Assembly: GCA_041485445.1 (NCBI GenBank)
Contig: JBGPJN010000002.1
Span: forward strand, 1-47,030
Source: Dehalococcoidia bacterium
GTDB taxonomy: Bacteria > Chloroflexota > Dehalococcoidia > Lucifugimonadales > UBA3495
Reading direction: 5' to 3'
DNA length: 47,030 nt
Under the pieces are notes generated by a model. That model was not told the origin of the DNA, made no database searches, and saw only the letters and a program-made list of their open reading frames with translations. Positions 9,071 to 44,516 of the stretch are shown in pieces. Position 1 is the first letter of the stretch; the number at the start of each line of letters is the position of its first letter. Made by a program: the position numbers and the translations under genes.

Positions 9071-9148
9071 GGGAAGGATGACCCTCGCCGCTGCCCGCGT
9101 CCCGCTCTGGCGGGGCGGCCAAGGGCAACATTGCCAAGGGCAACATTG

Positions 9149-10828
9149 ATGGAAACACTGTTGGTCCGAGACACCATCCTCCAGCTGGTGGCCCAGGCCG
9201 TGGCCCACGCCCAGCGGGAAGGGGAGTTGCAGCTCCAGACCACCCCGGAGATCGAGGTGGACCGCCCCGCCAAGGGGCAGCACGGCGATTTCGCCACCAA
9301 CCTGCCCCTGCGGCTGGCCCGGGCCACCCGTCTCAACCCACTGAAGCTGGCGGAGAAGCTGGCTAGCTACATGCCGGCCAACGACGCGGTGGCCCAGGTG
9401 GTGGCCGCGCCGCCGGGGTTCATCAACTTCTACCTGCGGGAGCGCTGGCTGCAGGAGCAGGTGGAGCTGGTCCGCCAGGCCGGGGCCCAGTACGGTCGCG
9501 TGGCCATGGGCCAGGGGCGGCCGGTGATGGTGGAGTTCGTCAGCGTTAACCCCACCGGCCCGGTGCACGTGGGCCACACCCGGGGCGCGGTGCTGGGCAG
9601 CACCCTGGCCAACGTCCTTGACGCGGCGGGGTATGCGGTCACCCGCGAGTACTACGTCAACGACGCCGGCAGCCAGATGGAGGCGTTCTACCGGTCGGTG
9701 CTGGCCCGCTACCAGCAGGCCCTGGGCGTGGCCGCGGAGCTGCCCCCCAACGGCTACGTGGGCCAGTACGTAACTGACCTGGCCCAGGATATCGTCCAGT
9801 CCCATGGCCGCCGGTTCCTGGACCTGGACCAAGCCACCGCCATCAAGGAGATCGGCGACCTGGGCCGGGAGAAGATGGTCGGCCTCATCCGGGAGGACCT
9901 GGCGTTCATCGGAGTCACCTTCGACAACTGGTTCAGCGAGCGGTCCCTGTACCAGAGCGGCGAGTACCAGCAGGCGCTGGACTTGCTCCGGAAGCAGGGC
10001 TACCTCTCGGAGCGGGAGAACGCCCTGTGGTTCAACTCCACCCTGCTGGGCGACGACAAGGACAACGTGGTGGTGCGCTCCACCGGCGAGCCCACCTACT
10101 TTGCCTCGGACATCGCCTACCACCACAACAAGTTCATCGGGCGGGGGTTCCACAAGGTCATCAACATCTGGGGCGCCGACCACCAGGGCCACGTGCCCCG
10201 CATGAAGGCGGCGGTGGCGGCCCTGGGGGCCAACCCCGACGACCTCACCATCCTCATCGCTCAGATGGTCACCCTCAAGCGGGGCAAGGAGGTGGTGCGG
10301 GCCTCCAAGCGCACCGGCGAGTTTGTGACCCTGCGGGAGCTGGCCCAGGAGGTGGGCGTGGACGCCTGCCGCTACTTCTTCCTGGCCCGCAGCCCCGACG
10401 CCCAGATGGAGTTCGACCTGGAGCTGGCCAAGAAAGAGTCGGCGGAGAACCCCGCCTACTACATTCAGTACGCCCACGCCCGCAACGCCGGCATCCTGAA
10501 CCTGGCCCGCACCCGGGAGATCGACTGGAGCCAGGGCGACGTGACCCTGCTCAACGACCCCAACGAGCTCAACCTCATTCGCACCATGTTGCGGCTGCCC
10601 GAGCTGGTGGGCCAGATGGCCCGGTCGCTGGAGCCTCACCACCTGCCCCACTACGCCATGGAGCTGGCCACTGCCTTCCACTGGTTTTACGAAAACTGCC
10701 GGGTCATCTCCGCCAACGCCGAGGACAACGACCTGACCCTGGCCAGGTTGAAGCTGGTGGAGTCGGCCCACATTGTCCTTGGGCGCACCCTGGCGCTCAT
10801 GGGAATGGCCGCCCCGGAGCGCATGTGA
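9149..10828 (+). CDS. argS: Arginine--tRNA ligase
   Basis: Class I HIGH motif region (NPTGPVHVGHTRGAVLG), then EYYVNDAGSQ, a C-terminal anticodon-binding DALR-type region, and the ending RM. ATG 9149 was chosen as start. Confidence 0.95.
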   Translation: METLLVRDTILQLVAQAVAHAQREGELQLQTTPEIEVDRPAKGQHGDFATNLPLRLARATRLNPLKLAEKLASYMPANDAVAQVVAAPPGFINFYLRERWLQEQVELVRQAGAQYGRVAMGQGRPVMVEFVSVNPTGPVHVGHTRGAVLGSTLANVLDAAGYAVTREYYVNDAGSQMEAFYRSVLARYQQALGVAAELPPNGYVGQYVTDLAQDIVQSHGRRFLDLDQATAIKEIGDLGREKMVGLIREDLAFIGVTFDNWFSERSLYQSGEYQQALDLLRKQGYLSERENALWFNSTLLGDDKDNVVVRSTGEPTYFASDIAYHHNKFIGRGFHKVINIWGADHQGHVPRMKAAVAALGANPDDLTILIAQMVTLKRGKEVVRASKRTGEFVTLRELAQEVGVDACRYFFLARSPDAQMEFDLELAKKESAENPAYYIQYAHARNAGILNLARTREIDWSQGDVTLLNDPNELNLIRTMLRLPELVGQMARSLEPHHLPHYAMELATAFHWFYENCRVISANAEDNDLTLARLKLVESAHIVLGRTLALMGMAAPERM

Positions 10829-10855: not shown

Positions 10856-10886
10856 GTCGCCTGCTTTGTGCAGGCGACTTCTGTTT
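10856..10886 (+). terminator. Intrinsic terminator after argS
   Basis: GTCGCCTGC-TTTGT-GCAGGCGAC (9-bp stem) followed by TTCTGTTTA. Confidence 0.6.
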
Positions 10887-11006
10887 ATAGCCGCTTCCCG
10901 ATACCTCGCGCCGTGCAAGGTTTCACGGACTATAACCTGCACTTATAGCTGCCATAATGCTTTTTACGATAGACGTAACTGAATGGCTGATATAAGTAAA
11001 AAAGTA

Positions 11007-11035
11007 TTGATTGTGAAGCAAAATCAGACTACACT
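11007..11035 (+). promoter_or_regulatory. Sigma-70-type promoter candidate for the selenoprotein operon
   Basis: TTGATT-17 nt-TACACT in the only AT-rich stretch upstream of 11092. An AGGAGG ribosome-binding site lies at about 11078. Confidence 0.5.
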
Positions 11036-11091
11036 TTCTGTCGTAGGTCAAAGAGGCGACGGATAACGGCTTCGGTAAAGGAGGAACAGGC

Positions 11092-11868
11092 ATGGCTACC
11101 CAGGTCGCGCCAGACATTGAAGTTTTGCGGCGGGAGGTGCAGCACAAATACACCGAGGTGGCGACCAGGCCGGAGCAGACCTTCCACTTCCACCACGGCC
11201 GGCCCCTGGCCCAGCTCCTGGGCTATCCCATGAACATGGTTGACGCCATGCCGGCCCAAGCGGTGGAGTCCTTTGCCGGAGTGGGCAACCCCTGTGGCCT
11301 GGGGGACATGCGCCCTGGGGAGACGGTGCTGGACGTGGGATGCGGCGGCGGCTTCGACAGCGTCATCGCTGCCCAGGCGGTGGGGCCAACGGGCAAAGTC
11401 ATCGGGGTGGATATGACCCAGGCTATGCTGAAGAAGGCTCGAGCCACCGCTCGTCAGATGGCATTGAAGCAGGTGGAGTTCCGCCGTGGCTTCGCCGAGG
11501 AGTTGCCCATTCCCGACGCCTCGGTGGACGTGGTCATCTCCAACGGTGTGATTAACCTGTGCCCGGATAAGCACCGGGTCTTTGCCGAGGTCTTCAGGAC
11601 TCTCAAGCCCGGCGGCCGTCTCTATCTGGCGGACATTGTGTTGCATAAGGCGGTACCCGATGGCGCCAAGGCCAACGTAGACCTGTGGACTGCTTGAATC
11701 GGCGGCGCTCTCCTGGAGGGAGAGTACCTGGATGCCATCCAGCGGGCCGGGTTCGTGGATGTGGAGTTGGTATCCACCGCGGATGTTTTCGCTGGGTCCG
11801 GCGGGGAGGGCAACGCCCACGCTTTTGGAACGGTGGGGGCCAACATCAGGGCCCGCAAGCCAGCCTAG
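11092..11868 (+). CDS. ArsM-like SAM-dependent methyltransferase with in-frame UGA, predicted selenocysteine at codon 202
   Basis: GETVLDVGCGGGFD is the SAM motif and VVISNGVINL is the ArsM-type motif. The track ORF stops at TGA 11695-11697, but the frame stays open to TAG 11866-11868. The extension encodes IGGALLEGEYLDAIQRAGFVDVELV, which continues the ArsM fold. The TGA sits where ArsM has the conserved Cys of W.GC.AGAL. Confidence 0.75.
11708..11724 (+). promoter_or_regulatory. Candidate bacterial SECIS hairpin for the methyltransferase UGA
   Basis: CTCTCC-TGGAG-GGAGAG has a 6-bp stem and a G-rich apical loop. It starts 11 nt after the UGA. Confidence 0.45.
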
Positions 11869-11922
11869 GGACGGTGCTGGGAATCAAGGGACCAACCAAA
11901 TTTACTTCGTATGGAGAAACCA

Positions 11923-12285
11923 ATGGCGAGAATACTATACATAGGGACTCACGGGACCGATGATCCAACCAATGCCACATTCCCCTTTCTGATGGCCAAG
12001 GGTGCTATTGAGGGGGGGCACGAGACGGGCATCATTCTCCAAGGAGAAGCTGCGCCGTTAATCAAAGATACCATCGCCGCGCAGGTTCACGGGGTCGGCA
12101 TTCCGCCCCTGAAGGAGTTGATGGACTTCCTCGTTGCACGCAAAGTCCGGATTTCTGTTTGAGGACTCTGTGGCCGTGCCCGTGGGGTCACGGAAAAGGA
12201 CTTTGAAGGGAAGAACAGCGGCTTTGGCACCCCAGTCGATGCGGCGAAGGCGCACGCTGAATACGACCGGGTGGTGAGCTACTAG
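11923..12285 (+). CDS. DsrE/DsrF-like family protein with in-frame UGA, predicted selenocysteine in a UGLC (UxxC) motif
   Basis: MARILYIGTHGTDDP...GHETGIILQGEAAPL is DsrE-like. The track ORF ends at TGA 12160-12162, and the same frame continues for 40 codons (GLCGRARGVTEKDFEGK...DRVVSY) to TAG 12283-12285. GGAG lies 8 nt before ATG 11923. Confidence 0.7.
12174..12193 (+). promoter_or_regulatory. Candidate bacterial SECIS hairpin for the DsrE-like UGA
   Basis: CCGUG-CCC-GUG-GGG-U-CACGG forms 5+3 bp with a bulged U and a GU-containing apical loop. It starts 12 nt after the UGA. Confidence 0.45.
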
Positions 12286-12311
12286 CGCCCGCGCTCCGCA
12301 CGGAGACCGCC

Positions 12312-12339
12312 AAGGCCCTGCCAGTAATAGCGGGGCCTT
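12312..12339 (+). terminator. Possible terminator after the selenoprotein operon
   Basis: AAGGCCC-(14 nt)-GGGCCTT followed by TGAATT. The T-tract is weak. Confidence 0.3.
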
Positions 12340-12349
12340 TGAATTGCCC

Positions 12350-12473
12350 CAGGGTCGTTTCATTCTCCCCAAAGTAGGGCAGACACATGTGTCTGCCCTA
12401 CGGCTGGAGGAGCAGACCAGGGCGCACACGCAGGTGCGCCCCTATAGGCAGACCCAAGAATAAAACGACCCTG
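12350..12473. repeat. MITE-like palindromic element, copy B
   Basis: Termini are CAGGGTCGTTTCATTCTC and GAATAAAACGACCCTG. The interior hairpins GGGCAGACAC-ATGTGTCTGCCC and GGGCGCAC-ACGCAG-GTGCGCCC are nearly identical to copy D. Confidence 0.7.
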
Positions 12474-16391: not shown

Positions 16392-17378
16392 TCAGTACAG
16401 GTGGCAGGACACCTCGTGGTCCGGCTTCAACTCCTTCAGCATCGGCAGCTCCTGGGAGCAGCGGTCCATCACGAAGGGGCAGCGCGGGTGGAAGGCGCAC
16501 CCGGAGGGCGGGTTCAAGGGCGAGGGGATCTCGCCGCTCAGCACAATGTCCTCTCGCTGGATGTCCGGGTGGCTGGGCAGCGCCGCGGAGATGAGGGCCT
16601 TGGTGTAGGGGTGCATGGGGTTGTTGAACAGCTCCCGGGTGGGCGCCTGCTCCACAATCTTCCCCAGGTACATCACCCCCACGTTGTGGCTCATGTACCG
16701 CACCGTCGCCAGGTTGTGGGCGATGAGCAGGTAGGCCACGCCGTAGCGCTCCTGCAGATCGCGCAGCAGGTTCATGATCTGGGCGCGGATGGACACGTCC
16801 AGGGCCGACACCGGCTCGTCCAGGACGATGAGCTTGGGTTGCAGCGACAGCGCCCGGGCGATGGCGATGCGCTGGCGCTGCCCGCCGCTGAATTCATGGG
16901 GGTAGTAGTCCCCCTGGAAGCTGTGCAGGCCCACCTCCTCCAGCAGGGACTCCAGCTTCTCCTTGGCCTCCCCCTTGTCCAGCTTCTGGTTGGTCAGCAG
17001 CGGCTCCAGGATGATGGACCCCACCCGCATGCGGGGGTTCAGGGAGCTCCAGGGGTCCTGGAACACCGCCTGGACCGAGGCCCGGTACTCCCGGTACTCC
17101 TCCGAGCGAAACCCCGCCAGGTCTTTCCCCTGGAACTTGATAATACCGGAAGTGGGCTTCTCCACCTGCAGTATCATCTTGGCGGTGGTGGTCTTGCCGC
17201 ACCCCGATTCTCCCACCAGGCTGTACGTCTCACCCTGCTTGATCTTGAAGGAGATACCGTCCACCGCCTTGACGTGGCCGATGGTCTTCCGCATCACCAC
17301 CCCCCGGGAGACCGGGAAGTACTTCTGACACTTTTCCACCGAGATGACCGCCTCGGTGGCTGCTCCATTCTGACTCAT
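16392..17378 (-). CDS. Peptide ABC transporter ATP-binding protein (OppF/DppF-type)
   Basis: Walker A GESGCGKTT, signature FSGGQRQR, and a C-terminal oligopeptide-type extension (HPYT..L). ATG 17378 overlaps the upstream stop (ATGA). Confidence 0.9.
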   Translation of the reverse strand: MSQNGAATEAVISVEKCQKYFPVSRGVVMRKTIGHVKAVDGISFKIKQGETYSLVGESGCGKTTTAKMILQVEKPTSGIIKFQGKDLAGFRSEEYREYRASVQAVFQDPWSSLNPRMRVGSIILEPLLTNQKLDKGEAKEKLESLLEEVGLHSFQGDYYPHEFSGGQRQRIAIARALSLQPKLIVLDEPVSALDVSIRAQIMNLLRDLQERYGVAYLLIAHNLATVRYMSHNVGVMYLGKIVEQAPTRELFNNPMHPYTKALISAALPSHPDIQREDIVLSGEIPSPLNPPSGCAFHPRCPFVMDRCSQELPMLKELKPDHEVSCHLY

Positions 17379-18346
17379 ACCAACTTCCAGCAGTGGGCAT
17401 AGTGGCCTTCGCCCACCGTCACCGGCGTAGGATACTCGTGCAGGCACCGTTCAAAGGCATAGGGGCATCGCGGGGCGAAGGGGCAGCCCGGGGGCAGCTT
17501 GTCCAGGGCGGGAGGCTGTCCTTCAATGGCGTACAGCTTGTCCACCTCTTCGTCCACGTTGGGCACCGAGCGCATCAGCGCTTCCGTGTAGGGGTGGGAT
17601 GGCTTGTTAAACAGGTCCCGCACCGGCGCCAGCTCCACCATCTTCCCCGCATACATCACCGCCACCCGGTCGCACATCTTGGCCACAATGCCAAAGTCGT
17701 GGGTGATGAAGATGATGGACAGCCCGGTTTCCTTCTGAATCTCCTTGAGTAGCATCAGGTACTGATATTGGATGGTAGCGTCCAAAGAGGTGGTGGCCTC
17801 GTCGGCGATGAGCACTTTGGGGGATCCCGCCATGGCAATGGCCCCCACCACCCGCTGCCGCATGCCGCCGCTCATCTGGTGGGGATAGTTGCCCATGCGG
17901 TTTTCGGGTGAAGCGATCTTCACCTTGGACAGCAGCTCCACCGCCCGCTCCTTCAGTCCGCGGCCGAGCCCTTCGTCCCGCATCCGCAGGGTTTCAATGA
18001 GCTGGTTGCCCACGGTATACACGGGGTTAAGGGATGTCATGGGGTCCTGCAAGATCATGCAGATCTTGCGTCCCCGGATATGCTGCATCTCATTAGCGGA
18101 CTTTTGCAGCAGGTCCTCCCCCTCCAGCAGCACCTTGCCACCTACCGTTTTCCCCGCGGGCTTGGGCACCAGCCCCATGATGGACAGGGCGGTCATGCTC
18201 TTGCCGCTGCCCGACTCCCCCACTATACCCAGCGTTTCCCCGGGCAGCAGGGAAAAGCTCACCCCGTCCACCGCCTTCACCACGCCGGTGCGGGTGAAGA
18301 AATAGGTCCTCAGGTCCTGAACTTCCAGAACCGGCGCTTGGGCCAA
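17375..18346 (-). CDS. Peptide ABC transporter ATP-binding protein (OppD/DppD-type)
   Basis: Walker [10 protein letters not shown], signature [15 protein letters not shown]. Confidence 0.9.
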
Positions 18347-18369
18347 AGTATCTCCCTCCTATACGCCGG

Positions 18370-19293
18370 CTAGGCTCGCCGAAGCTTGGGGTCCATAGTG
18401 TCGCGCATCCAGTCGCCGAAGAAGTTGAACGCCAGCACCACGATGGTGATGGACAAACCGGGCAGCAGGGACAACCACCACACGTCGACGATGACGGTGC
18501 GTCCCTCGGCCACCATAATGCCCCAGGCCGGTTCACCGGGGGGCAGCCCCAGCCCCAGGAAGCTCAGGGAGGCCTCCAGCAGGATCACCTGGCCGATCTG
18601 CAGGCTGGTGATGACCAACAGGGTGTTGACGATGTTGGGGAAGATGTGCCGGGCCATGATCATGAAGGGGGATACCCCGGCGATCTTGGCCTGGGTGATG
18701 AAGTCCAACTCCTTGATGCTGAGCACGTCGCCCCGGATCATGCGGGCGAACCGAGCCCAGACGGTGAGCAACACCGCCAGCACGATGTTCTGTATGCCAG
18801 CTCCCAAGAGCACCACGATGATCATGGCCACCAGGATCGTGGGAAATCCCAGCGCGGCGTCGGCGATGCGCATAATCAGCGCATCAACCCACCCGCCGCG
18901 GTACCCGGCCATCAGGCCTAGCGCGGTGCCTGCCACCATGCCGGTGCCCAGCGCCACCAGGCTGATGAACACGCTGGTGCGGGCCCCGTAAATCAGGCGG
19001 CTCAGCATGTCGCGGCCCATGACGTCGGTGCCCAGGGGATGGTTCCAGCTCCAGTTGGCGTCTTCCCCGCCCCAAAATGCGCTGATAATCGCCGGCGACA
19101 TGCGTGATTCCAGCATGTTGATCTCCACCGGATCGTGGGGCGCCAACACGTTGGCAAAGGCGGCGCAGGTAACCAGTACCGACACAATGGAGATAGATAC
19201 CCAAGGCAGCTTTAGCCTGCGGCTTCGGCTCCTCAGTTGCCTGAGCCATCCAGCCCTTGAAGCGGTAGTTGCGACGCTGGTTACGGTAGCCAT
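18370..19293 (-). CDS. Peptide ABC transporter permease (OppC/DppC-type)
   Basis: BPD_transp_1-type permease with multiple TM segments. The EAA-like region contains AKIAGVSPFMIMARHIFPN. Confidence 0.9.
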   Translation of the reverse strand: MATVTSVATTASRAGWLRQLRSRSRRLKLPWVSISIVSVLVTCAAFANVLAPHDPVEINMLESRMSPAIISAFWGGEDANWSWNHPLGTDVMGRDMLSRLIYGARTSVFISLVALGTGMVAGTALGLMAGYRGGWVDALIMRIADAALGFPTILVAMIIVVLLGAGIQNIVLAVLLTVWARFARMIRGDVLSIKELDFITQAKIAGVSPFMIMARHIFPNIVNTLLVITSLQIGQVILLEASLSFLGLGLPPGEPAWGIMVAEGRTVIVDVWWLSLLPGLSITIVVLAFNFFGDWMRDTMDPKLRRA

Positions 19294-19314
19294 AGCATCC
19301 TCCGCGCTGAGTAT

Positions 19315-20238
19315 TTAATCGTATCTGATTCTGGGGTTAACATAAGCGTACAGGATGTCCACCACCAGGGCGGAGACAATGTAGAAGAGCCCGGCCGCCA
19401 GCACGGTGGCCTGCACTATGGGGAAATCCCGGGTCTGAATCCCCTGGAGCATGAGGCGCCCGATGCCGGGCCAGGCAAACACCACCTCCACCGCCACCGA
19501 GCCGTTGAGCAACCCGGCCAGGGTCAATCCCGAGAAGGTCAGCAGGGGGATGATGGCGTTCTTGAGGGCGTGCTTGAAGATGACCAGCCGCTCCGCCAGC
19601 CCCTTGACCCGGGCGAACTTGACGTACTCGCTGTCCAGCACTTCCAGCATGCTGGAGCGGCCCAGGCGCACCATGCCGGCCATGGCGGCCCAGCCCAGCA
19701 CGAAGGAGGGCAGCACAAAGTGGTCCAAGCCCCCGCGGCCGAAGGTAGGCAGCCAGCCCAGGATCGCCCCGAAAAGCAGGATTAGCATGATGGCGATCCA
19801 AAAACTGGGGCTGGCGATGCCCAGTACCGCAAAAAACTTGGCGAAGAGGTCAATGGGCGTGTCGCGTTTCACCGCGGAGAGGATGCCCAGGGGGATTCCC
19901 ACCACTAGGGCTATGGTGAAGGCCGCGGAGGCTAGCTGCAAGGTGGCGGGGAACCGCTCCAGCAGAACTTCCCGGGCCGAGCGGCCCAGGATGTGGGACT
20001 TGCCAAAGTCGGCCCGCAGCACGTCGCCCATGAAGGAGATGTATTGAATGTGCAGGGGGCGGTCCAGCCCCAGGTTCTTCTTGAGCTGCTCGTACTCGGT
20101 ACGGCCAGCCTCGGACCCCAGGAGGTACTGGGCCGGGTCCCCAGTGAGGTGTACGCTGAGAAAGATGGCCAGGCTCAGGATCCACAGGGTGAACAACGCC
20201 TGAAACACGCGAAACAAGATGTATCGCTGCATATCCAC
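19315..20238 (-). CDS. Peptide ABC transporter permease (OppB/DppB-type)
   Basis: Typical N-terminus MQRYILFRVFQALFTLW and the EYVKFARVKGL motif. Confidence 0.9.
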   Translation of the reverse strand: MDMQRYILFRVFQALFTLWILSLAIFLSVHLTGDPAQYLLGSEAGRTEYEQLKKNLGLDRPLHIQYISFMGDVLRADFGKSHILGRSAREVLLERFPATLQLASAAFTIALVVGIPLGILSAVKRDTPIDLFAKFFAVLGIASPSFWIAIMLILLFGAILGWLPTFGRGGLDHFVLPSFVLGWAAMAGMVRLGRSSMLEVLDSEYVKFARVKGLAERLVIFKHALKNAIIPLLTFSGLTLAGLLNGSVAVEVVFAWPGIGRLMLQGIQTRDFPIVQATVLAAGLFYIVSALVVDILYAYVNPRIRYD

Positions 20239-20553
20239 CTCATGTGCCGACTGTGCTGGGCCGCTACCCCGACCCTGCTCTCATGGGCAGGGTACCTCTC
20301 GTGGCCGCCGAAACCAACCTGTGGAAACCAATCCCCAAGCGCCGGGACAACTGCGTCCGGCCAGCTACCCATTTTGGTGACGCCGTCACCAAGGGAACGT
20401 CCCTCAGCAGGCGCCTGGATACTAAAAGCGAAGCCACGTCATGCGCCCATCTCTTAGTCAAAAGAGCGCGCTTGCGTGGCCGCCGTTCTGACTCACCGTG
20501 CTATCCGGAACTGGTTAGCACACCTAAGTCAAGTACATCACCGAAGTTAATTG

Positions 20554-20648: not shown

Positions 20649-22490
20649 CTACTTCAAAACCATGCCGTGAATGTTAGAAGGGAAGAAGGCCAGCGGGTAG
20701 GGTTGCCACTGGACCACCCGCGGGCCCACGGCCCAGGGGATGTTCATGTAGCCGATGCCCAGCTCGTAGGACTCGTCCCTCCCCCGCTTGGCCAGGATGT
20801 TATTCTGCCTCTGCCGCTCCACCGGTTCCACCACGCCCAGGGCCAGACCGGTCAGGTCGAACAGGTCCGGGGTCTGGTGCAGCCGGGCCCCGTGGGTGGG
20901 GCTGCCGTAGGAAGAGAGCCACACGGCCGTCTTGTCCTGGCCGGCCTCATTGTCCCGCCACAGTACCTGGCCGTGGAGGGCGTCGGTCAGGGTGTCCCGC
21001 TTCAGGGCGGCCTCGTCGCCCACCTTCACCTCCACGTCCAGCCCTAGCTCCTTGCGCCAGAAGTCGGCGGCCAGCTGGGCCGACTCAGGTAGGAAGGGCA
21101 TGGCCGTGGAGACCCAGGTGTTGACCACCAGCTTGCCGAAGCCCTGGCCGTTGGGGTAGCCGGCCTGGGCCAGGAGCTGCTTGGCCTTGGCCACGTCCTG
21201 GGGCCAAACGTCCAGGTCCTTGCTGTAGCCGATGGTGCTGGGTGTGACGTGGGCCCAGCCCTTGGTCTGGAACACCTCCGGGCCGCCAAACAGCTTGTCC
21301 CGGATGATGTTCTTGTCTATGGCGTAGTCCAGGGCCTGGCGCACTTCCTTCTTGTAGCAGGGGTTCGCGGGCTTATAGCAGCCCAGCAGCATCACCCGCA
21401 CGTACAGCCCTTCCGGGCCGAAGACCAGGCGACCGTTGCCCGCTTCCACCTGTTTCTTGGTGGCGAGGCTGGCGGGGGCGATGTCGGCCTCGCCGGCGCG
21501 AATGGCGGCCACGCGGGTGGCCTCCTCCGGCACCAGGCGCAGCTCCAGGTTCTTGAACTTGGGCCGGCGGTCCTCCGGCAAGCCGTTCTTGGTCTGGTAG
21601 TAGTAGTCCTCAAACCGCTCGAAGGCCATCACCTCGGCGGGAACGTGCCGCGTCATGGCGAAGGGGCCGGAGCTGATGGGCTTCTTGTCGTAGGCCTCTT
21701 CCTGGGCGGTATCGTGGACCTTGGGCCGCTTGGGGTTGATGCCGTACCAGTTGCCCGCCGCTTCCGACACGTAGGCCCCGGCGAACCCGGCGTTGGCCTG
21801 GGTGAAGTTCATGCTGACCTGATTGGGTTGGGGCAGGGTGACGCTGCCCACGGTCCTGGCCAGGGCCTGGGCGCTGCTCTGGGTAGCCCGCTCCACCGCG
21901 GAGCCCGACTCGTCCTTGCCCCAGTAATGCATGAAGGTCCACCAAACGTCCTGAGCGGTGATGTTGCTGCCATCGTGGAACTTGCCGCCCTCCCGGATGG
22001 TGAAGAGCCAGGTCTTGCCGTCGGGGGAAACCTCCCATTTGGAGGCGATGCCGGGGATCAGCTCGGTCTTCTCGTTGGTGGCAACGAGGTATCCCTGGAG
22101 AAACCGGGCGAAGTTGTTGCCGCCGCCCACGGCGAAGTTGTAGGTGAACCGCTCGTTGCCCCAGCCGGCAATCATGAAGACCAGCTTGCCGGAGCTTATC
22201 GTCCCGGGGGCGGGGGCCGTGGTGGGCTTGGGCATGGCGGTGGGCGTGGCGGCGCCGGCCGCGGGCGCTGCGGTGGCGGTGGCCGCCGCGGGCGTGCCGG
22301 CGCCACGGGTTGGGGCTGGGGCTGCCGCCGTGGGGCCGGCGGTGGGAGCGGGCGTGGCGGTGGCGGCGGCGCCGCAAGCCACTGCCAGCAGCATCACCAG
22401 GGCCGCCGCTAGGCCGACCATGCCCAGCAAGCCGGTGGAAGTCCGTTGGACCCGCGGGTCAGGCCGCCGTCCCTCTGGCGGAGTTCCCAT
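20649..22490 (-). CDS. ABC transporter substrate-binding lipoprotein, family 5 (peptide/nickel)
   Basis: Start ATG 22490 is preceded by AGGAGGA. Signal and lipobox are LLAVACGAAATATPAPT. It is highly similar to the adjacent paralogue, for example ASLATKKQVEAGNGRL and FERFEDYYYQ.KNGLPEDRR. Confidence 0.88.
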   Translation of the reverse strand: MGTPPEGRRPDPRVQRTSTGLLGMVGLAAALVMLLAVACGAAATATPAPTAGPTAAAPAPTRGAGTPAAATATAAPAAGAATPTAMPKPTTAPAPGTISSGKLVFMIAGWGNERFTYNFAVGGGNNFARFLQGYLVATNEKTELIPGIASKWEVSPDGKTWLFTIREGGKFHDGSNITAQDVWWTFMHYWGKDESGSAVERATQSSAQALARTVGSVTLPQPNQVSMNFTQANAGFAGAYVSEAAGNWYGINPKRPKVHDTAQEEAYDKKPISSGPFAMTRHVPAEVMAFERFEDYYYQTKNGLPEDRRPKFKNLELRLVPEEATRVAAIRAGEADIAPASLATKKQVEAGNGRLVFGPEGLYVRVMLLGCYKPANPCYKKEVRQALDYAIDKNIIRDKLFGGPEVFQTKGWAHVTPSTIGYSKDLDVWPQDVAKAKQLLAQAGYPNGQGFGKLVVNTWVSTAMPFLPESAQLAADFWRKELGLDVEVKVGDEAALKRDTLTDALHGQVLWRDNEAGQDKTAVWLSSYGSPTHGARLHQTPDLFDLTGLALGVVEPVERQRQNNILAKRGRDESYELGIGYMNIPWAVGPRVVQWQPYPLAFFPSNIHGMVLK

Positions 22491-22620
22491 GTCATCCTCC
22501 TGCTGCGCCGCCCCGTGAACGCAAGAAACCGCTACATGGTTAGGCTGAATGTCACGAATACTTACCATCGTATTGCGGTTTACCTCAAGCTGTGTCGGGT
22601 AGCGCCATAAACTGTGCAGG

Positions 22621-22649
22621 ATGGTAACAAGAGAGGTGGGCATTGTCAA
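22621..22649 (-). promoter_or_regulatory. Promoter candidate for binding-protein gene 20649-22490
   Basis: The minus strand reads TTGACA-17 nt-TACCAT. Confidence 0.45.
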
Positions 22650-22836
22650 CGGAAGCGTATCGGCAATGAACTGGAGTCGTAGTGACGGATTGCGGACTTG
22701 GGTTATACCAGAACGTGGCGGGCCAGCGGTGGCGCAGACTGGGGGAAGCGAGAACAGACGTGGCCGTCCTGCGCCGGACCTGGGACAACCCGACGAGTGG
22801 CCCGAAGGGAAGGCCCCAGGCGGGCTAGGAGTGGCC

Positions 22837-22867
22837 AAAAAAGGGGGGAGCCGCGTTGGGCTCCCCC
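22837..22867 (-). terminator. Intrinsic terminator of binding-protein gene 22928-24688
   Basis: The minus strand reads GGGGGAGCC-CAACGC-GGCTCCCCC followed by CTTTTTTGG. A second 11-bp hairpin lies at 22887-22912. Confidence 0.7.
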
Positions 22868-22927
22868 AGTGGGTTTCCGTTGGACTGGCCCCCACGGCAC
22901 GCCGTGGGGGCCTTGCCGGAGCAGAGG

Positions 22928-24688
22928 CTACTTCAAGGTGATGGTGTGCAGCCCGGAGGGATAGAACGAGAAGGTGAAGGGCTGCCAGGCGGTGACCCGG
23001 GGGCCAACGCCCCAGGGGATGTTCACGTACCCGATGCCCAGCTCGTAGGATTCGTCCCGCAACCGCTTGTAAGTGGCGTTGAGGGCCGCGCCGCGCAGGG
23101 CCGGGTCGGTGACCGCCAGGGTCTTGGTAACCTCATCGAACAGCGTTTGGTCGTGGTGCTGGCGGTCGCCCTGGGTGGGCGTGCCGTAACCGGACCGCAT
23201 GATGCTGGCGCCGTCCATCCGCGCTTCGTTGTCCCGCACGGTAATCTGGCCGTTGAGCTCGCCGTTGCGCCGGGCCGCATTCAGGGAGGCCTCTTCGCCG
23301 ACCTTGACCTCCACGTCCAGCCCCAGCTCCCGCCGCCAGGTGTCGGCCATGAGGGTGGCGGCCTCGGGCATGAAGGGCAGGGACGCCGAGACCCAGGTGT
23401 TGACGATCAGCTTGCCAAAGCCCTGGCCGTTGGGGTAGCCCGCCTCGGTCATGAGCTGCTTGGCCCTGGCCACGTCCTGGGGCCAGGAGTCCAGGTCCGG
23501 GCTGTAGCCCAAGGCGCCGGGAGTCACGAACTCCCACCCCTTGGTGGAGAACACCTCGGGCCCGCCGTACAGGTTGTCCCGGATGACGTTCTTGTTCAGG
23601 GCCAGGTCCAGGGCCTGGCGTACCTTTTTGTCCTTGCAGGGGTACTTGGTGTAGTTGGCTTCCCAGCAGCCGCTGAGGACGACGCGCATATACACGCCTT
23701 CCGGGCCGAAGATCAGGCGGCCGTTGCCGGCCTCCACCTGCTTCTTGGTGGCCAGGCTGGCGGGGACAATGTCGGCGTCGCCGGCCCGCAGGGCGGACAC
23801 CCGGGTGGACTCCTCCGGCACCAGCCGCAGGTCCAAGAACTTGAACTTGGTCCGGCGGTCTTCCGGCAGGCCGTTCTTGGGCTGATAGTAGAAATCCTCG
23901 AACCGCTCGAAGGACATAACCTCAGCCTGGGTGTGCTTGATCAGCTTGAAAGGGCCCGCGCCGATGGGGTTGCGCTCGTAGGCAGCCACTTCGGCATCGT
24001 CGTTCATGTTGGCCCGCTTGGGCAGGATCATGCCGATCCAGTTGGGGCCGGCCTCAGCCAGCAGACCGGACGGGACGCCGGAGTCCACGTTCTTGGTGGT
24101 CATGCTGACCTGGTTGGGACCGGTCTGCTCGATCTTCTCCGCGTTGCGGGCGGCGGCCTGGCCGGTGGTGCCCTTGTTGTAAGCCAGACTATCCGGGCTC
24201 CATTCGTGGTTCATGGTCCAGGCGATGTCCGCGGCGGTGAGGGGCGAGCCGTCGTGGAACTTGACGCCGTCGCGGACGGTGATGGTCCAGGTCTTGCCGT
24301 CGGCGGAGACCTTCCAGTCGGAGGCGATGCCCGGGGTCATGCTGCCGTTGGGGTTAGCGGCGATGGGGAACCCGTGGATGAGACGGGCGTACTGGTTGCT
24401 GGTGCCGGTGCCGGCATAGACGTAGTCAAACCGCTCGGCGCCCCAGTTGCCGATCATCATGGTGAGCTTGGCGGGACTGACTGTCGTGGAAACTGGGCCG
24501 GCGGTGGGCTTGGGCATGGCCGTGGGTGTGCCGGCGCCAGCCGTGGGCGCCGCTGCAGTGGGGTTGGTTGTCGGAGCGGGCGTTGCGGTGGCGGCGGCGC
24601 CGCAGGCCAGCGCCAATAGCGATACCGACGCCACCCCTAGGCAGAGACCGTAGTGGACCAGTGACCGTGATCGGGACAATGAGCGCAT
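22928..24688 (-). CDS. ABC transporter substrate-binding lipoprotein, family 5 (peptide/nickel)
   Basis: Start ATG 24688 is preceded by GGGAGGA. Lipobox is LLALACGAAATATPAPT. It is a tandem paralogue of 20649-22490. Confidence 0.88.
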   Translation of the reverse strand: MRSLSRSRSLVHYGLCLGVASVSLLALACGAAATATPAPTTNPTAAAPTAGAGTPTAMPKPTAGPVSTTVSPAKLTMMIGNWGAERFDYVYAGTGTSNQYARLIHGFPIAANPNGSMTPGIASDWKVSADGKTWTITVRDGVKFHDGSPLTAADIAWTMNHEWSPDSLAYNKGTTGQAAARNAEKIEQTGPNQVSMTTKNVDSGVPSGLLAEAGPNWIGMILPKRANMNDDAEVAAYERNPIGAGPFKLIKHTQAEVMSFERFEDFYYQPKNGLPEDRRTKFKFLDLRLVPEESTRVSALRAGDADIVPASLATKKQVEAGNGRLIFGPEGVYMRVVLSGCWEANYTKYPCKDKKVRQALDLALNKNVIRDNLYGGPEVFSTKGWEFVTPGALGYSPDLDSWPQDVARAKQLMTEAGYPNGQGFGKLIVNTWVSASLPFMPEAATLMADTWRRELGLDVEVKVGEEASLNAARRNGELNGQITVRDNEARMDGASIMRSGYGTPTQGDRQHHDQTLFDEVTKTLAVTDPALRGAALNATYKRLRDESYELGIGYVNIPWGVGPRVTAWQPFTFSFYPSGLHTITLK

Positions 24689-24793
24689 AATCCTCCCTGG
24701 TGCATTGGGCTTGACCGGTTGTCGTCGCCCGACGGCTGAAGAGACACAAAATGGCCCCACGGCGCCTCGAAATACGTCGCGGGCAGGCTTGCC

Positions 24794-24822
24794 AGGTTAA
24801 CAGGTCGCCTTGGCCCTGTCAA
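24794..24822 (-). promoter_or_regulatory. Promoter candidate for binding-protein gene 22928-24688
   Basis: The minus strand reads TTGACA-17 nt-TAACCT. Confidence 0.45.
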
Positions 24823-27204: not shown

Positions 27205-27280
27205 AGCAAAGCGGGGCGCGTGAACCAGCGGCTATTATAGTCAGGCGTCACTTCCCCTGTCCATGCTGCCCATCGCCGGT

Positions 27281-27470
27281 CGGGCCTTTTCATTCTCCCC
27301 GAATGCAGGGGCAGCACAATCTCCTCTTCCCTTGTGAGAGAGGATTAAGGCGAGGGGTATCGCCCTGACCCCAGCCCTCTCCCAGAGGGAGAGGGGGCGG
27401 TGGCGAGAGTTCCCCATTCGCCCTCAGGGAGAAGGGGCCAGGGGGATGAGGGCTATTTTGTTAGAAATGA
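27281..27470. repeat. Degenerate composite repeat region
   Basis: It begins with GGGCCTTTTCATTCTCCCC, which resembles the left terminus of the MITE-like family. It contains CCCTCTCCC-AGAG-GGAGAGGG and GAGAGGATTAAGGCGAGGGG units. No clear right terminus is visible. Confidence 0.4.
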
Positions 27471-32594: not shown

Positions 32595-32727
32595 CAGGGC
32601 TGCTTCATTTTCCACGAGGGTAGGGGCAGACCTATGGAGCCTGCCCTTCGGCCGAAGGGTCCGGCCAGGTCGCATCCCGACACAGTCGGGACGCCCCTAC
32701 GGGCAGGCCGAGAATGAAACAACCCTG
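32595..32727. repeat. MITE-like palindromic element, copy C
   Basis: Termini are CAGGGCTGCTTCATTTTC and GAGAATGAAACAACCCTG. The interior carries GGGGCAGACC, CCCGAC-ACA-GTCGGG and CCCCTACGGGCAGGCC modules shared with copies A, B and D. Confidence 0.7.
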
Positions 32728-36213: not shown

Positions 36214-38019
36214 TCAACGCGCCTTCCGCGGCCATGGCGCGAAGGCGTTGTTAACCTGCCCCAGGAAGGGCGCCAGGCTGGGGTAGTGCCGCAGCAGGAC
36301 GGTGGACATGGTGTTGTTGTCGATCCAGTCCATGCCCAGCTTGGTGTACACCGCCGGTGTGTAGTCGGTGGTGAAGAACCGGTCGCTCTTCAGCCGCCGG
36401 GATGCCATCAGCACGAAGATGCGGAAGGCGGTGTCGCTGAACCCAAACCCCCGGGGCGTGGGCTCGGCATACATGCCCACCATGGTGTCCACCCGGTCCA
36501 CGTCGTTGTCGTAGACCTCCCGCAGTTCCTCCGCCCAAACGCGGTTCTTGGTCAGCTGCTCAAAGCTCTTGACCCGCGGCTTGTGCAGGAGCTGCCGGAA
36601 CTGGTTGTAGCGGGGCACCCCGCGCTCCCGGTCCCGCAACACGTCCACCGCGGCCAGGTCCACCAGGGCGCCGGTGGGCTGCTTCAGCTGCCGCAGGAAG
36701 CGGGGGAAGTTGTGCAGGGTGACCGCGCCCGGATTGGAACTGCCCAGGGAGTAGAATAGGTCCGGCATGGCGATCTGGGACTGCAACTTCCGGACGTTCC
36801 TCCCCTCCACATCTGGAAAGGTCTGGTCCAGGAGGGAACGGTCCCCATCCAGTGAGCGGAAATTGAAATCGTCCGGGATCAGGGGGTGCAGCCGGTAGAC
36901 TGCAGTGAACTCCTCGGTCATGGCGTAGGGCGCCCCGTGGTGCGCAGTGAGCGAGCCGGGAATGCCGCCGAGGAAATCGCTGCGGCCCAGCCGGCCAAAG
37001 CCCCGGTGGAACCGTTCCCCCATCAAGCCCCACCAGTTGCCCCGCATGGCGAAGCGCAGGGTGGGTTGGGCGAGAATGCCGGGGGTCCACTCCACCGTGT
37101 GGATCTTGGCCATCAACGCCCCGTTGATGAGCCGGGCGCGGTCAAACACCTGGTCGTCGGACCAGTCGGGGTACTCGGCGGCCAGGCGGTCGCAGATGGC
37201 GTTATGCTCCTTGGTGAACAGGGTGTGCAGCAGGCTCAGGCCCACCCACCAGTTGTCGTTGATGCCGGTGCGGTCGGTGCCGGTCTTGGGGTCCAGCGGC
37301 AGCAGCCCGTCGGCGCCCACGATGAGCTTGCCCTTGTCCCCCGACCGCAGGCTGGCCTGGGCCTCCGCGGTGTTGCCGTAGATCTGGGACGCGTCCCACC
37401 AGTGCACCGAGGTGTTGATGGAAGTGGGAGGAAGGCCCCGGTCCTTCCCCTCCGGCGCGTAGGTTGGGTCCCGCCGGGTGCGTCCGATGCGCATGGGGCG
37501 TTCCGGCCACGGGTCGGCCTGGTCCAGGGGCAGCTCCCAGGGGTTCTCCGGCTCCGGCATGCCGTGATTGAACCAGTCGTGGACCTGGAACTGGATCCAG
37601 GCCGCGGCCAGCACGTTCAGGGAGGTGGCGGGGATAAAGGTGTCCCGGGCCAGCAATCGGGCGCTGACGGTGCGGGGATTGGGCGTAAGGAGGGCGGCGG
37701 GCGCGTCCGGGAATCCGAACTTCAGCGGAACGTTGCGGGCGAACCTCGTCCCAACGCTGCCCATCGTGGGGTACTTCAGGTCGTTTAGGGTTCCGTCCAC
37801 GGTGCGGGCGGTGCGATATCGCTGCTGCTCGGCGGTAAGCTCCGGACCGGGGGTGGACATCGTACCGGTGGTGTCGTGGAGGTTCCGCTGCCGCAGGGTG
37901 TCGCGGATGGCCACCAGGTTCAGCACCGCCAAGGGCTTGGGCAGTCGGTACCACGGCACCACCCGGTTGATGCCGCTGAAGGTCTTGATGAGCAGCCAGG
38001 ATAAGGGCGATCCAGCCAT
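36214..38019 (-). CDS. Haem peroxidase-cyclooxygenase superfamily protein, alpha-dioxygenase/fatty-acid dioxygenase-like
   Basis: Distal-His region AAAWIQFQVHDWFNHG, proximal-His region AKIHTVEWTPGIL, and the Tyr motif EEFTAVYRLHPLIPD, which matches the YR.H/YHWH catalytic-Tyr context of alpha-DOX and COX. Confidence 0.83.
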   Translation of the reverse strand: MAGSPLSWLLIKTFSGINRVVPWYRLPKPLAVLNLVAIRDTLRQRNLHDTTGTMSTPGPELTAEQQRYRTARTVDGTLNDLKYPTMGSVGTRFARNVPLKFGFPDAPAALLTPNPRTVSARLLARDTFIPATSLNVLAAAWIQFQVHDWFNHGMPEPENPWELPLDQADPWPERPMRIGRTRRDPTYAPEGKDRGLPPTSINTSVHWWDASQIYGNTAEAQASLRSGDKGKLIVGADGLLPLDPKTGTDRTGINDNWWVGLSLLHTLFTKEHNAICDRLAAEYPDWSDDQVFDRARLINGALMAKIHTVEWTPGILAQPTLRFAMRGNWWGLMGERFHRGFGRLGRSDFLGGIPGSLTAHHGAPYAMTEEFTAVYRLHPLIPDDFNFRSLDGDRSLLDQTFPDVEGRNVRKLQSQIAMPDLFYSLGSSNPGAVTLHNFPRFLRQLKQPTGALVDLAAVDVLRDRERGVPRYNQFRQLLHKPRVKSFEQLTKNRVWAEELREVYDNDVDRVDTMVGMYAEPTPRGFGFSDTAFRIFVLMASRRLKSDRFFTTDYTPAVYTKLGMDWIDNNTMSTVLLRHYPSLAPFLGQVNNAFAPWPRKAR

Positions 38020-38035
38020 GCCAGAATCTCCTTCC

Positions 38036-39493
38036 CTACTGGGTCTTCAAATACTCCAAGATGGCTTCCTTCTCCTCGGTAGCCAGGTTGGTGCCATAGG
38101 TGTGGCCGCCGTTGCTGTTGCCCCTGGCGGTGGTGTCGTACCGCCAGCCCAGGCGCTCGGCTTCCGCGCCGGCGGACTGGAAGCCCACGTCGGCGAAGTT
38201 ATAGACCGGGTAGCCCCGATAGAAAGCCTTCGGGCGCTCTTCCGGGGGCTTGAGCAGGTCCCGCAGGGTGGGCACGGAGCCGTTGTGCAGGTAGGGCGCC
38301 CGCAGCCAGATGCCGTCCAGGGGCATGTTGGCGTAGCCGCCGGTGGTGCGGAAGTGGGAGAACTTCCATGGATAGCCGGTGCCCAGGGTGTTCATGCGCT
38401 GGGCCAGCTCCGGGCTGAAGGACCTCAGCCGCTCAGGGTCTGTGCCCACGGCGCTGAGGGGGGTGACCTGCCCCACGTCCCGCCCGTCCAGGGCATGGCA
38501 CTGGGCACAGTTGGTCTGGAACAGCCTCTCCCCGGCTTGGGCGCGGCCCTGGTCGATCCGCGCCGCCGGGAACCGGGGCGGCGGCAGGTCCAGGATCCAG
38601 TCCTCGATCCGCTTCATGCCTGCCAGGTCCAGGGATGCGGGCGACGCTCCGGCGCCAATGGCCGCGCTTTTGTTCCGCTCCTCCACTGAGTTGTTGTTGC
38701 CGTCCCAGTGCAGCCACATGTTGGCCCGCGCCCGCTGGTTCCACAGGGAGGGCAGGTCGGCGGTGCCCACCGTGTCGTCGCCCGCCAGGTCCATGCCCAG
38801 CAGCCGCTTGTAGGGGTTGAAGGTGTCCACGCGACCCGGTCCCAGGGGCGGGCGCGCCTCCATCCAAGAAAAATTGGCGGCCTCCTGGAGCAGGGCGTCT
38901 TTGGTGCGGGGAATGATTAGATAACGGTAGATCAGGCCGTCCAGCCAGGAGAAATCCGGGTTGGCCGCCCGGATGGCGGGCAGGAGGGTGCCGGCGGTGA
39001 AGCGCGGGTCCCGGGCGCTGGCAAAGAGGAACCCCAGGTAGCCCGCCAGGTTGAACTGGCCGGCCGGCATGCCCAGGACCAACTGGGCGGGCGCCCCGGG
39101 CGACTCCTGCACCAGGCTGCTGTGGCATAGGGAGCAGTTGAGCCCCACCATGGGGAACGGCTTCTCCCGGTAGCTGGTGCCGATGGGGCGCTGGTGGGCG
39201 GGGGACTCGTAGATGAAGCCCAGGCGGGCGTAGCCCTCCCCCGGCCCCGGGGGCAGGCGCTCCGGGAAGACGGTGGGCAGGACCCGCCAGATCCAGTAGG
39301 GGATGCCCGACCGGCCTTCCGCACCGATGGAGCCGTACTTGAAGTGGTCCTCGATGCTGGCGTGCAGCTCGGGCACGTTCCGCTGAAACCAGACCAGGGC
39401 GTAGATGCCGGCCACCACCGCCACCGCCAGCAGCCCGGCGAGGGCCGCCAGGGAGATTCTCCAGCCACGGGACAGCCTGCTCAGCTTCTTCAT
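38036..39493 (-). CDS. Membrane-anchored dihaem c-type cytochrome, cytochrome-c-peroxidase/MauG-like
   Basis: Two CxxCH motifs (NCSLCHS and NCAQCHA). The N-terminal anchor is ISLAALAGLLAVAVVAGIYAL. APYLHNGSVPTLRDLL and the C-terminal GHTYG...EKEAILEYLK are typical of the CCP/MauG family. Confidence 0.72.
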   Translation of the reverse strand: MKKLSRLSRGWRISLAALAGLLAVAVVAGIYALVWFQRNVPELHASIEDHFKYGSIGAEGRSGIPYWIWRVLPTVFPERLPPGPGEGYARLGFIYESPAHQRPIGTSYREKPFPMVGLNCSLCHSSLVQESPGAPAQLVLGMPAGQFNLAGYLGFLFASARDPRFTAGTLLPAIRAANPDFSWLDGLIYRYLIIPRTKDALLQEAANFSWMEARPPLGPGRVDTFNPYKRLLGMDLAGDDTVGTADLPSLWNQRARANMWLHWDGNNNSVEERNKSAAIGAGASPASLDLAGMKRIEDWILDLPPPRFPAARIDQGRAQAGERLFQTNCAQCHALDGRDVGQVTPLSAVGTDPERLRSFSPELAQRMNTLGTGYPWKFSHFRTTGGYANMPLDGIWLRAPYLHNGSVPTLRDLLKPPEERPKAFYRGYPVYNFADVGFQSAGAEAERLGWRYDTTARGNSNGGHTYGTNLATEEKEAILEYLKTQ

Positions 39494-39499
39494 AGGCTG

Positions 39500-40819: not shown

Positions 40820-40896
40820 GGCGATATCACCCTTGGCCCGTGAGAGTCACGCCAGTTCACCCCAATTTCCCTGGGATGTCACCCGAAGCGGGCCAC

Positions 40897-42410: not shown

Positions 42411-42416
42411 GGTGCG

Positions 42417-44282: not shown

Positions 44283-44391
44283 GGCGGGTGCCTTCGTTGG
44301 TTCGAATCGGGTTCAAGCACAAACGGGAACTGGCGACCGCTCCAGCATAGCACCCAGGGCGAGGGATGGGTAGGGCGAGGTGGGGGGAGGG

Positions 44392-44516
44392 CAGGGCTGT
44401 TTCATTTTCCCCAAAGGTAGGGGCAGACCTTTGTGTCTGCCCTACGGCTGAAGGGGCAGACCAGGGCGCACACGCAGGTGCGCCCCTACGGGCAGGCCGA
44501 AAATGAATCGGCCCTG
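44392..44516. repeat. MITE-like palindromic element, copy D
   Basis: Termini are CAGGGCTGTTTCATTTTC and GAAAATGAATCGGCCCTG. It shares an identical interior block of more than 30 nt with copy B (GCAGACCAGGGCGCACACGCAGGTGCGCCCCTA). Confidence 0.7.

Follow-up and report, generated by a model that had tools for sequence, protein, structure and literature searches.

Two families of bacterial selenoproteins already described have members in the locus reported here. Selenoprotein catalogues hold an entry "arsenite methyltransferase, NF008823, UxxG", where U is selenocysteine (Sec) (PMC13188914; Global Ocean Sampling [GOS] survey, PMC2398784), a Sec-containing family that PMC13188914 cites from Fomenko et al. 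2007. They likewise hold an entry "DsrE-like protein, PF02635, UxxC" (PMC13188914; Sargasso Sea survey, PMC1088965; GOS survey, PMC2398784). The Sargasso Sea and GOS surveys mention no link between the DsrE-like selenoprotein family and a methyltransferase, and the selenoprotein-operon section of a 2026 review mentions no methyltransferase/DsrE-like pair. We found such a pair in a 47,030-nucleotide (nt) stretch of DNA from a Dehalococcoidia bacterium of the Chloroflexota (GenBank assembly GCA_041485445.1, contig JBGPJN010000002.1, positions 1 to 47,030 of the forward strand), hereafter called the window. Both families are known selenoproteins, and only their pairing is new. The pairing is real and recurs in many uncultured bacteria. 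A preliminary description of the window, made from its sequence alone, knew of no characterization of the pairing, and our literature searches agree, having yielded general selenoproteome reviews and no publication describing a methyltransferase (MT)/DsrE-like pair. On present evidence we lean, by a modest degree, toward the reading that a single-selenol MT and a UxxC DsrE-fold relay or redox partner would work together as a bicistronic selenoprotein operon.

Recurrence was surveyed from both sides of the pair. With the DsrE-like protein as seed, 18 loci were collected from species-representative genomes and 80 from metagenomes, 45 of Sec type and 53 of Cys type. Adjacency was scored where at least 850 nt were present on both flanks and a Sec-containing MT (Sec-MT) gene lay within 300 nt on the same strand. 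By this rule, 7 of the 23 scorable Sec-type loci carried a Sec-MT neighbor, compared with 0 of the 24 scorable Cys-type loci (Fisher p = 0.004), and clustering of open reading frames (ORFs) found MT to be the only family neighboring more than five Sec-type DsrE-like loci. Seen from the other gene, the closest MT orthologues (72 to 84% identity) occur in 10 distinct contexts, and in 5 of these a DsrE-like gene lies directly downstream (L099, L100, L121, L122 to L124, and L125 to L127, in our numbering of related loci). The survey of co-occurrence that the preliminary description had suggested is thus positive in both directions. The pair is found in both gene orders (MT then DsrE-like, and the reverse in L028 and L031) and spans two MT clades that share about 55% identity, with unrelated flanks. 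A mixed pair joins a Sec-MT to a CxxC DsrE-like protein (L115), and an actinobacterium (L013) carries a Cys/Cys pair in divergent orientation with a 523-nt gap. MT pairs only with DsrE-like forms that have a two-residue motif (UxxC, UxxU, and CxxC); the single-Cys CEPSG forms are unpaired, except for the divergent L013. Because mixed and Cys/Cys pairs exist, and because the pair occurs in both orders among different flanks, the linkage reflects more than shared use of Sec. A further apparent conserved neighbor, cluster 3, was rejected because it proved to be the DsrE-like gene read in another frame.

An alternative hypothesis sees the locus as an island of selenoprotein genes whose products are not directly coupled; the proteins would have unrelated roles, and their genes would lie together because selenium supply regulates them in common or because they were transferred together. 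The position after MT is indeed variable in relatives that share the window's backbone of argS upstream and two ABC exporter genes downstream. It holds a UxxU DsrE-like gene (L100, L125), a DsbD_N protein (L102), a Prx-like protein with a W-U-P-F-C motif followed by DsbD_N (L103:5084-5518, a candidate selenoprotein), or nothing recognizable (L111). In L099, which lacks the argS...ABC backbone, a small C-P-A-U protein (a 75-residue fragment in the region L099:4923-5150, also a candidate selenoprotein) lies between MT and the DsrE-like gene. Extra Sec-MT paralogues cluster at the same loci (L100, L102, L008, L110, and L122), as would be expected of an island. Distant second copies lie at L100:3144-3788, L102:3190-3873, L122:3436-3891, L008:8536-9180, and L028:519-1148, with the motifs SWFA-U-IAGAK and DWFR-U-IGGAL and with SECIS-like (selenocysteine insertion sequence) hairpins of their own, differently placed. 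Pairing is also facultative. Against the island stand the reappearance of the same two families in differing orders and flanks, including the mixed and Cys/Cys pairs, the failure of any other family to accompany more than five Sec-type DsrE-like loci in the ORF clustering, and the existence of fusions of the same MT with redox selenoprotein domains. We consider uncoupled clustering unlikely, and the coupled pair is the reading carried forward below.

In the window, both genes lie on the forward strand between argS and the pair of ABC exporter genes. The features to which we refer are as follows, with the strand in parentheses.

10856 to 10878 (+): terminator-like hairpin and T-run after argS, with a 9-bp stem, seven GC pairs, and the tail TTCTGTTTAT; upstream boundary of the unit
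10962 to 11006 (+): AT-rich block TTTTACGATAGACGTAAC...GATATAAGTAAA, 5' of the promoter-like hexamers and alignable in orthologous loci
11007 to 11035 (+): promoter-like TTGATT-17 nt-TACACT, read from the sequence
11078 to 11084 (+): Shine-Dalgarno sequence AAGGAGG, 7 nt ahead of the MT start codon
11092 to 11868 (+): MT selenoprotein gene, encoding a predicted ArsM-derived S-adenosylmethionine (SAM) methyltransferase of 258 residues with Sec202; ATG at 11092, stop codon TAG at 11866 to 11868
11695 to 11697 (+): UGA encoding Sec202 of MT, in the context LWTA-U-IGGAL; corresponds to Cys224 of CmArsM (motif U-I-G-G)
11707 to 11725 (+): SECIS-like hairpin of MT, 8 bp with an apical GGA (or UGGAG) loop, beginning 12 nt past the U of UGA
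11913 to 11917 (+): ribosome-binding site GGAGA of the DsrE-like gene
11924 to 12285 (+): DsrE-like selenoprotein gene, DsrE fold, 120 residues with Sec80-x-x-Cys83; stop codon TAG at 12283 to 12285
12160 to 12162 (+): UGA codon for Sec80 in the DsrE-like gene, in the context RISV-U-GLCGR (motif U80-G-L-C83)
12174 to 12193 (+): SECIS-like hairpin of the DsrE-like gene, CCGUGCCC-GUG-GGG(U)CACGG, with a nearly invariant upper stem GCCC/GGGU
12312 to 12339 (+): GC-rich hairpin 3' of the DsrE-like stop codon, a possible terminator with no clear T-run, absent from the terminator-scan output
about 12350 to 12473 (no strand assigned): dispersed structured intergenic repeat (z = -6.65), not part of operon function
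42417 to 44312 (-): selB, the Sec-specific elongation factor, with GTP_EFTU, Beta-barrel_SelB, SelB-wing_2, and SelB-wing_3 domains

The start codon of the DsrE-like gene, ATG at 11924, was fixed by the N termini of its homologues (MA[KR]ILYIGTHG). The upstream gene on the forward strand (9131 to 10828) was identified as argS by synteny with ArgS Pfam domains in L100, L102, and L112, and the exporter pair, which begins at 12539, was recognized from its syntenic counterparts in L100, L102, and L111, which have ABC_membrane and ABC_tran domains. The spacer between MT and the DsrE-like gene measures 55 nt rather than the 54 nt given in the preliminary description. That description had also presented the locus as a self-contained, dedicated unit behind one promoter, closed by a hairpin and then a repeat. 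The picture of a compact same-strand two-gene unit stands, with the argS terminator upstream and the hairpin and repeat downstream; the repeat is real, having three further copies in the window, and the hairpin is present without a clear T-run. "Self-contained" and "dedicated" are too strong, given that pairing is facultative (about 30 to 50% of loci) and that the partner position varies in syntenic relatives. The four copies of the repeat lie at 12350 to 12473, about 27280 to 27321, about 32595 to 32636, and 44392 to 44501, the last just upstream of selB. Their sequence, CAGGGyyGyTTCATTyTCCCC...GGGCAGAC...GTCTGCCC..., has no Rfam match and resembles repetitive extragenic palindromes or miniature inverted-repeat transposable elements.

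Both selenoprotein genes are where the preliminary description had put them, and both UGAs are confirmed as Sec codons, neither stops nor chance. This assignment draws on conservation of read-through, homologues with Cys in the Sec column, hairpins, the presence of SelB, and the standard genetic code. Across 127 loci, translated matches read through the UGA to the true C terminus at 50 to 92% identity. Database homologues of the DsrE-like protein comprise full-length 120-residue Cys forms alongside many 79-residue proteins that end exactly at the UGA, and nearly all of the best 120 homologues of MT are proteins of 199 to 201 residues cut at or near it. Among DsrE-like proteins, those with CEPSG or CGFCG have Cys in the Sec column; for MT it does so in actinobacterial L013 (LWAA-C-IGGAA) and as Cys224 in CmArsM. 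The MT hairpin stem is 97.7% paired across 16 distinct sequences, compared with 48 to 62% for slid-partner controls, and in 6 of the 16 a C-G pair is swapped for G-C through a synonymous Leu change and a Gly-to-Ala change. In the DsrE-like hairpin, the upper stem GCCC-GUG-GGGU is almost invariant and the lower stem is partly conserved. In Sec forms, third-position entropy at codons 86 to 89 falls to 0.18 to 0.36 bit (about 1.5 bit at the remaining 4-fold sites), whereas the same codons are not frozen in Cys forms (0.55 to 1.21 bit against a background of 0.82). A scan of the whole window at Rfam gathering thresholds returned one tRNA only and no SECIS family. The selB gene in the window shows that the organism is able to decode both UGAs; selA, selD, and tRNA-Sec (the last sought with ARAGORN) were absent from the window. 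The use of UGA for an ordinary amino acid under an alternative code was ruled out, as TGA terminates many ordinary genes here with high GC at third codon positions, and the code is therefore standard. As to its own surroundings, selB lies about 30 kb from the selenoprotein pair, and a NurA gene is directly downstream of it (41205 to 42416).

The DsrE-like protein scores 42.2 bits against the Pfam DsrE model PF02635 (cut-off, 22.7) and carries the UxxC motif. With its Cys homologues and SECIS element it is indistinguishable from the catalogued DsrE-like selenoproteins and is a new member of that family. Its fold was tested on a proxy, P0048, a CxxC homologue 66% identical to it (AlphaFold2 model; predicted local distance difference test, 91.1). 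Foldseek matched the proxy model to 1jx7 (YchN), 3mc3 (a DsrE/F-like protein of Sulfolobus), 2hy5_A (DsrE), and 2d1p_A (TusD) at template modeling scores of 0.76 to 0.81. On the strength of this model, the DsrE/YchN fold is confirmed for the DsrE-like protein, in line with the fold first ascribed to it. A sequence search of the Protein Data Bank (PDB) gave insignificant matches only (CGLCG motifs in von Willebrand factor and mucins; YchN at E = 0.9), and a profile search gave no match to any NCBIfam family. The U/C-x-x-C motif of the proxy model spans the end of a strand (residues 76 to 80) and the first turn of a helix (residues 81 to 86), a geometry typical of redox CxxC motifs. The strand-to-helix junction at Sec80 presumably falls at the position of the active, persulfide-bearing Cys of DsrE and TusD (Cys78). 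The x7-RG spacing of the DsrE-like protein presumably resembles that of the TusD motif.

In the four related loci L100 (L100:4826-5185), L125 (L125:4845-5180), L126, and L127, both motif positions of the DsrE-like protein are UGA (V-U-R-A-U-A), and these UxxU genes sit directly downstream of a Sec-MT in the same argS...ABC synteny as the window. The existence of the UxxU form suggests that the second motif residue is reactive too. A homologue of a different kind, P0041, has Arg at the Sec position (V-R-G-L-C) and lies directly downstream of a Sod_Ni gene on three contigs (L118 to L120). The closest structural relatives, DsrEFH/TusBCD (2hy5, 2d1p) and YchN (1jx7), share with the window protein its fold and a reactive residue at the end of the central strand and start of the helix, but DsrEFH and TusBCD have a lone Cys where the window protein has the two-residue UxxC. 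Membership in DsrEFH/TusBCD was considered and rejected, as the locus holds a single DsrE-family gene with argS, MT, and ABC exporters as its neighbors. No second DsrE-family gene (DsrF/H or TusC/TusB), TusA, or DsrC was found near the pair, and related loci gave no second DsrE match. A second relative, SaoD, belongs to the Sec-assisted organometallic (SAO) system; it has the DsrE fold and an invariant CxxC, is encoded in a multi-selenoprotein operon presumed to handle soft metal species, and is never itself a selenoprotein (Haft, bioRxiv 10.1101/2022.07.06.499078). In contrast, the window protein is a selenoprotein and no other SAO component is present. Membership in SAO was likewise rejected, with no NCBIfam match for the DsrE-like protein and no SAO neighbors.

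Several kinds of gene are found repeatedly near the pair or near DsrE-like genes of Sec type, among them transporters of the major facilitator superfamily (MFS), a divergent LysR regulator, OsmC, and further methyltransferases. A rhodanese adjoins the L003 gene. In L115:2480-5652, the order is OsmC, Sec-MT, CxxC DsrE-like, and an SQR/FCSD-like flavoprotein of 385 residues, a gene string that ties the pair to the chemistry of sulfide or persulfide; L001 likewise has OsmC ahead of the pair. The rhodanese and flavoprotein, together with the DsrE/TusD fold, would suit a DsrE-type sulfur or selenium relay feeding biosynthetic methylthiolation or chalcogen assimilation, with a role in neither detoxification nor efflux. 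Such a relay would, however, lack its usual DsrF/H, TusB/C, TusA, or DsrC partners nearby. Moreover, UxxC, UxxU, and CxxC are redox-type motifs, the carrier-like single-Cys CEPSG forms are the ones that stay apart from MT (bar the divergent Cys/Cys L013), and the recurrent context is one of MFS exporters with LysR or MerR regulators. This makes a purely biosynthetic relay quite improbable. The Cys-type CEPSG genes themselves have, from a reading of the translations, an apparent extracytoplasmic function sigma factor, an AhpD-like CxxC protein, a Tn3-type transposase, and an integrase as neighbors, and the conservation of these neighbors appears to reflect closely related mobile contexts.

The other half of the pair, MT, is a class I SAM methyltransferase by Pfam (Methyltransf_31 at 6.5e-34, with Methyltransf_25 and Methyltransf_11 also matching). 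Its best PDB matches are CmArsM/AS3MT (4fs8, 4kw7, and 5evj; E about 1e-29), with which it shares the SAM-binding Rossmann core and C-terminal domain. To judge from these alignments, MT is a descendant of the ArsM lineage. Residues 55 to 232 align with CmArsM residues 63 to 254 and place Sec202 opposite the As(III) ligand Cys224, so the reactive position of MT does hold Sec, as had been predicted. The remaining ligands are not retained. Cys72 of CmArsM is Val in the window MT and Val or Thr across the family members examined, and Cys174 is Gly (SNGV) in the window MT and invariantly so in 27 aligned relatives. No counterpart of Cys44 was seen, the window MT being free of Cys before residue 68 and the CmArsM match beginning at residue 55. 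Of the cysteines that MT does have, Cys68 is unique to the window protein and Cys157 varies across the family. The operational definition of ArsM calls for at least three of the four conserved cysteines (44, 72, 174, and 224 in CmArsM; PMC5552862), and the window MT keeps one of the four positions, 224, as Sec202. With Val and Gly at two of these positions and no Cys seen for a third, MT cannot form the tri-thiolate As(III) site or the internal disulfide pair in the manner of ArsM. The score against NCBIfam PRK11873 is 241.4 bits, below the curated cut-off of 263, and no arsR, arsC, acr3, or arsB was found in the window or among annotated neighbors in the related contexts checked. On these three grounds (lost cysteines, a subthreshold score, and no ars genes among annotated neighbors) MT falls outside ArsM proper; of the tests for canonical ArsM, it has the SAM-binding domain and fails those of cysteines, score, and gene context. 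The preliminary characterization of MT as an ArsM-type enzyme acting on As(III) via Cys ligands is accordingly not upheld.

Canonical arsenic detoxification, in which MT would be an ArsM with Sec replacing one As(III) ligand and the DsrE-like protein an accessory, has in its favor that the nearest PDB and NCBIfam relatives are ArsM/AS3MT, that Sec aligns with a ligand, and that the literature files the selenoprotein family as "arsenite methyltransferase" (PMC13188914; PMC2398784), but the loss of the other cysteines, the PRK11873 score, and the lack of ars genes make it very unlikely. A more limited resemblance is possible, namely, that MT acts somewhat like ArsM, with a soft nucleophile beside the SAM methyl group becoming methylated. 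With the catalogued Sec "arsenite methyltransferase" family (NF008823/PRK11873-like, UxxG), MT has in common the fold, the Sec position (U-I-G-G), the downstream SECIS hairpin, and truncation by gene callers at 201 residues. MT departs from that family, as does the rest of its orthogroup, in having none of the other ArsM cysteines and in scoring under the PRK11873 cut-off. The best NCBIfam profiles for the MT domain (234 to 250 bits) are ArsM_AhpD_UU (NF041537), MTase_UXPK_star (NF047649), and ArsM_DUF2284_UU (NF041536). In the NCBIfam fusions, the same methyltransferase is joined to a second Sec-bearing domain (CxxU in the AhpD fusion), which is the same logic as that of the pair; here, the partner is a separate gene with a different fold, DsrE. 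MT scores far below the full-length cut-offs of the fusion models (460 to 575) because this second domain is absent.

How might a single-selenol MT and a UxxC DsrE-fold protein cooperate? We infer from the gene and protein sequences that the two may be coupled physically or functionally, with transfer in one of the directions outlined here and with As, Se, Te, or sulfane sulfur as candidate substrates. The lone selenol of MT, Sec202, at the ArsM Cys224 position beside the SAM methyl group, would hold a soft substrate. The DsrE-like protein could hand that substrate (sulfane sulfur, selenium, tellurium, or a metalloid) to the selenol, could resolve the Se-X or Se-S adduct remaining after methyl transfer, or could do both. 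It would thereby provide, in trans, redox cysteines of the kind that are built in cis into canonical ArsM. The varied alternative partners of MT (the Prx-like protein, the CPAU protein, and OsmC), together with the AhpD fusions, speak for a partner with a redox or relay role and against a fixed structural subunit. A neighboring MFS transporter under LysR or MerR control may export the methylated product in other lineages, a context that suggests an inducible methylate-and-export function. We speculate, with considerable doubt, that the "arsenite methyltransferases" of this clade are not arsenic enzymes at all, being instead single-selenol methyltransferases that would carry their substrate (sulfane sulfur, selenide, telluride, or a soft metal) on one Se-X bond, with delivery or resolution by a UxxC/UxxU DsrE-fold selenoprotein and export by a linked MFS pump.

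Several points weigh against a working two-gene operon. The pairing is facultative, the partner being absent beside about 70% of the DsrE-like genes of Sec type and beside roughly half of the closest MT orthologues. The recurrence counts are not phylogenetically independent because the loci come from metagenomes and related metagenome-assembled genomes, and the metagenome loci are the best 80 of 262 matches. No MFS transporter or LysR regulator lies next to the pair in the window. Co-transcription is inferred from the 55-nt spacing and the shared strand only, and the promoter-like TTGATT-17-TACACT is a weak match, agreeing with the consensus at 8 of 12 positions and falling under the threshold of the promoter scanner, which reported no sigma-70 site.

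The single AT-rich promoter that had been proposed for the pair is thus doubtful in strength, while its position is conserved. The stretch of about 210 nt between the argS terminator and MT is AT-rich (45.5% GC at 10890 to 11091, compared with 66.1% for the window), and alignment of positions -130 to +3 by MAFFT (the window, L019, L021, L121, and L099) places TTGnnn and a -10-like hexamer (TACAAT, CATAAT) at the same position and spacing in the orthologous regions. A promoter function for TTGATT-17-TACACT is plausible on this comparison. The AT-rich block 5' of the MT -35 element (TACGATAnACGTA...GATATAAGTAAA, window 10962 to 11006) is conserved in L019, L021, L121, and L099 as well and may be an UP element or operator.

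Elsewhere in the window, other features were recorded in passing. On the reverse strand, 36214 to 40846 encodes an animal-type heme peroxidase (610 residues; An_peroxidase, 8e-111), a RoxA-like diheme cytochrome c, and a flavin oxidoreductase of the Old Yellow Enzyme type. Also on the reverse strand, a gene for a family 5 solute-binding protein is duplicated in tandem (20649 to 24796); the copies are 70 to 80% identical in DNA sequence across about 2.2 kb and lie upstream of an ABC transporter of the Opp/Dpp type (16392 to 20280). A 30-nt tandem repeat (CAGCGGCGGCCTGAGGCGGGGGTGCAGCGG...) at 46915 to 47030 runs off the end of the window.

The pair bears on an abundant MT family that has been labeled "arsenite methyltransferase" by homology alone and that gene callers cut at the UGA. 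With three of the four ArsM cysteines lost, a UxxC/UxxU DsrE-like pairing, and a recurrent context of MFS transporters and LysR regulators, the label becomes a testable biochemical question, namely, what a one-selenol methyltransferase methylates. If the substrate is sulfur, selenium, or tellurium, the pair would give Chloroflexota a Sec-dependent means of producing volatile or methylated chalcogens, and such genes should be counted as arsM in environmental surveys of arsenic cycling only with caution. If the proposal is true, a Sec-dependent pathway of chalcogen or metalloid methylation would be widespread in Chloroflexota and Dehalococcoidia, in soils and oceans.

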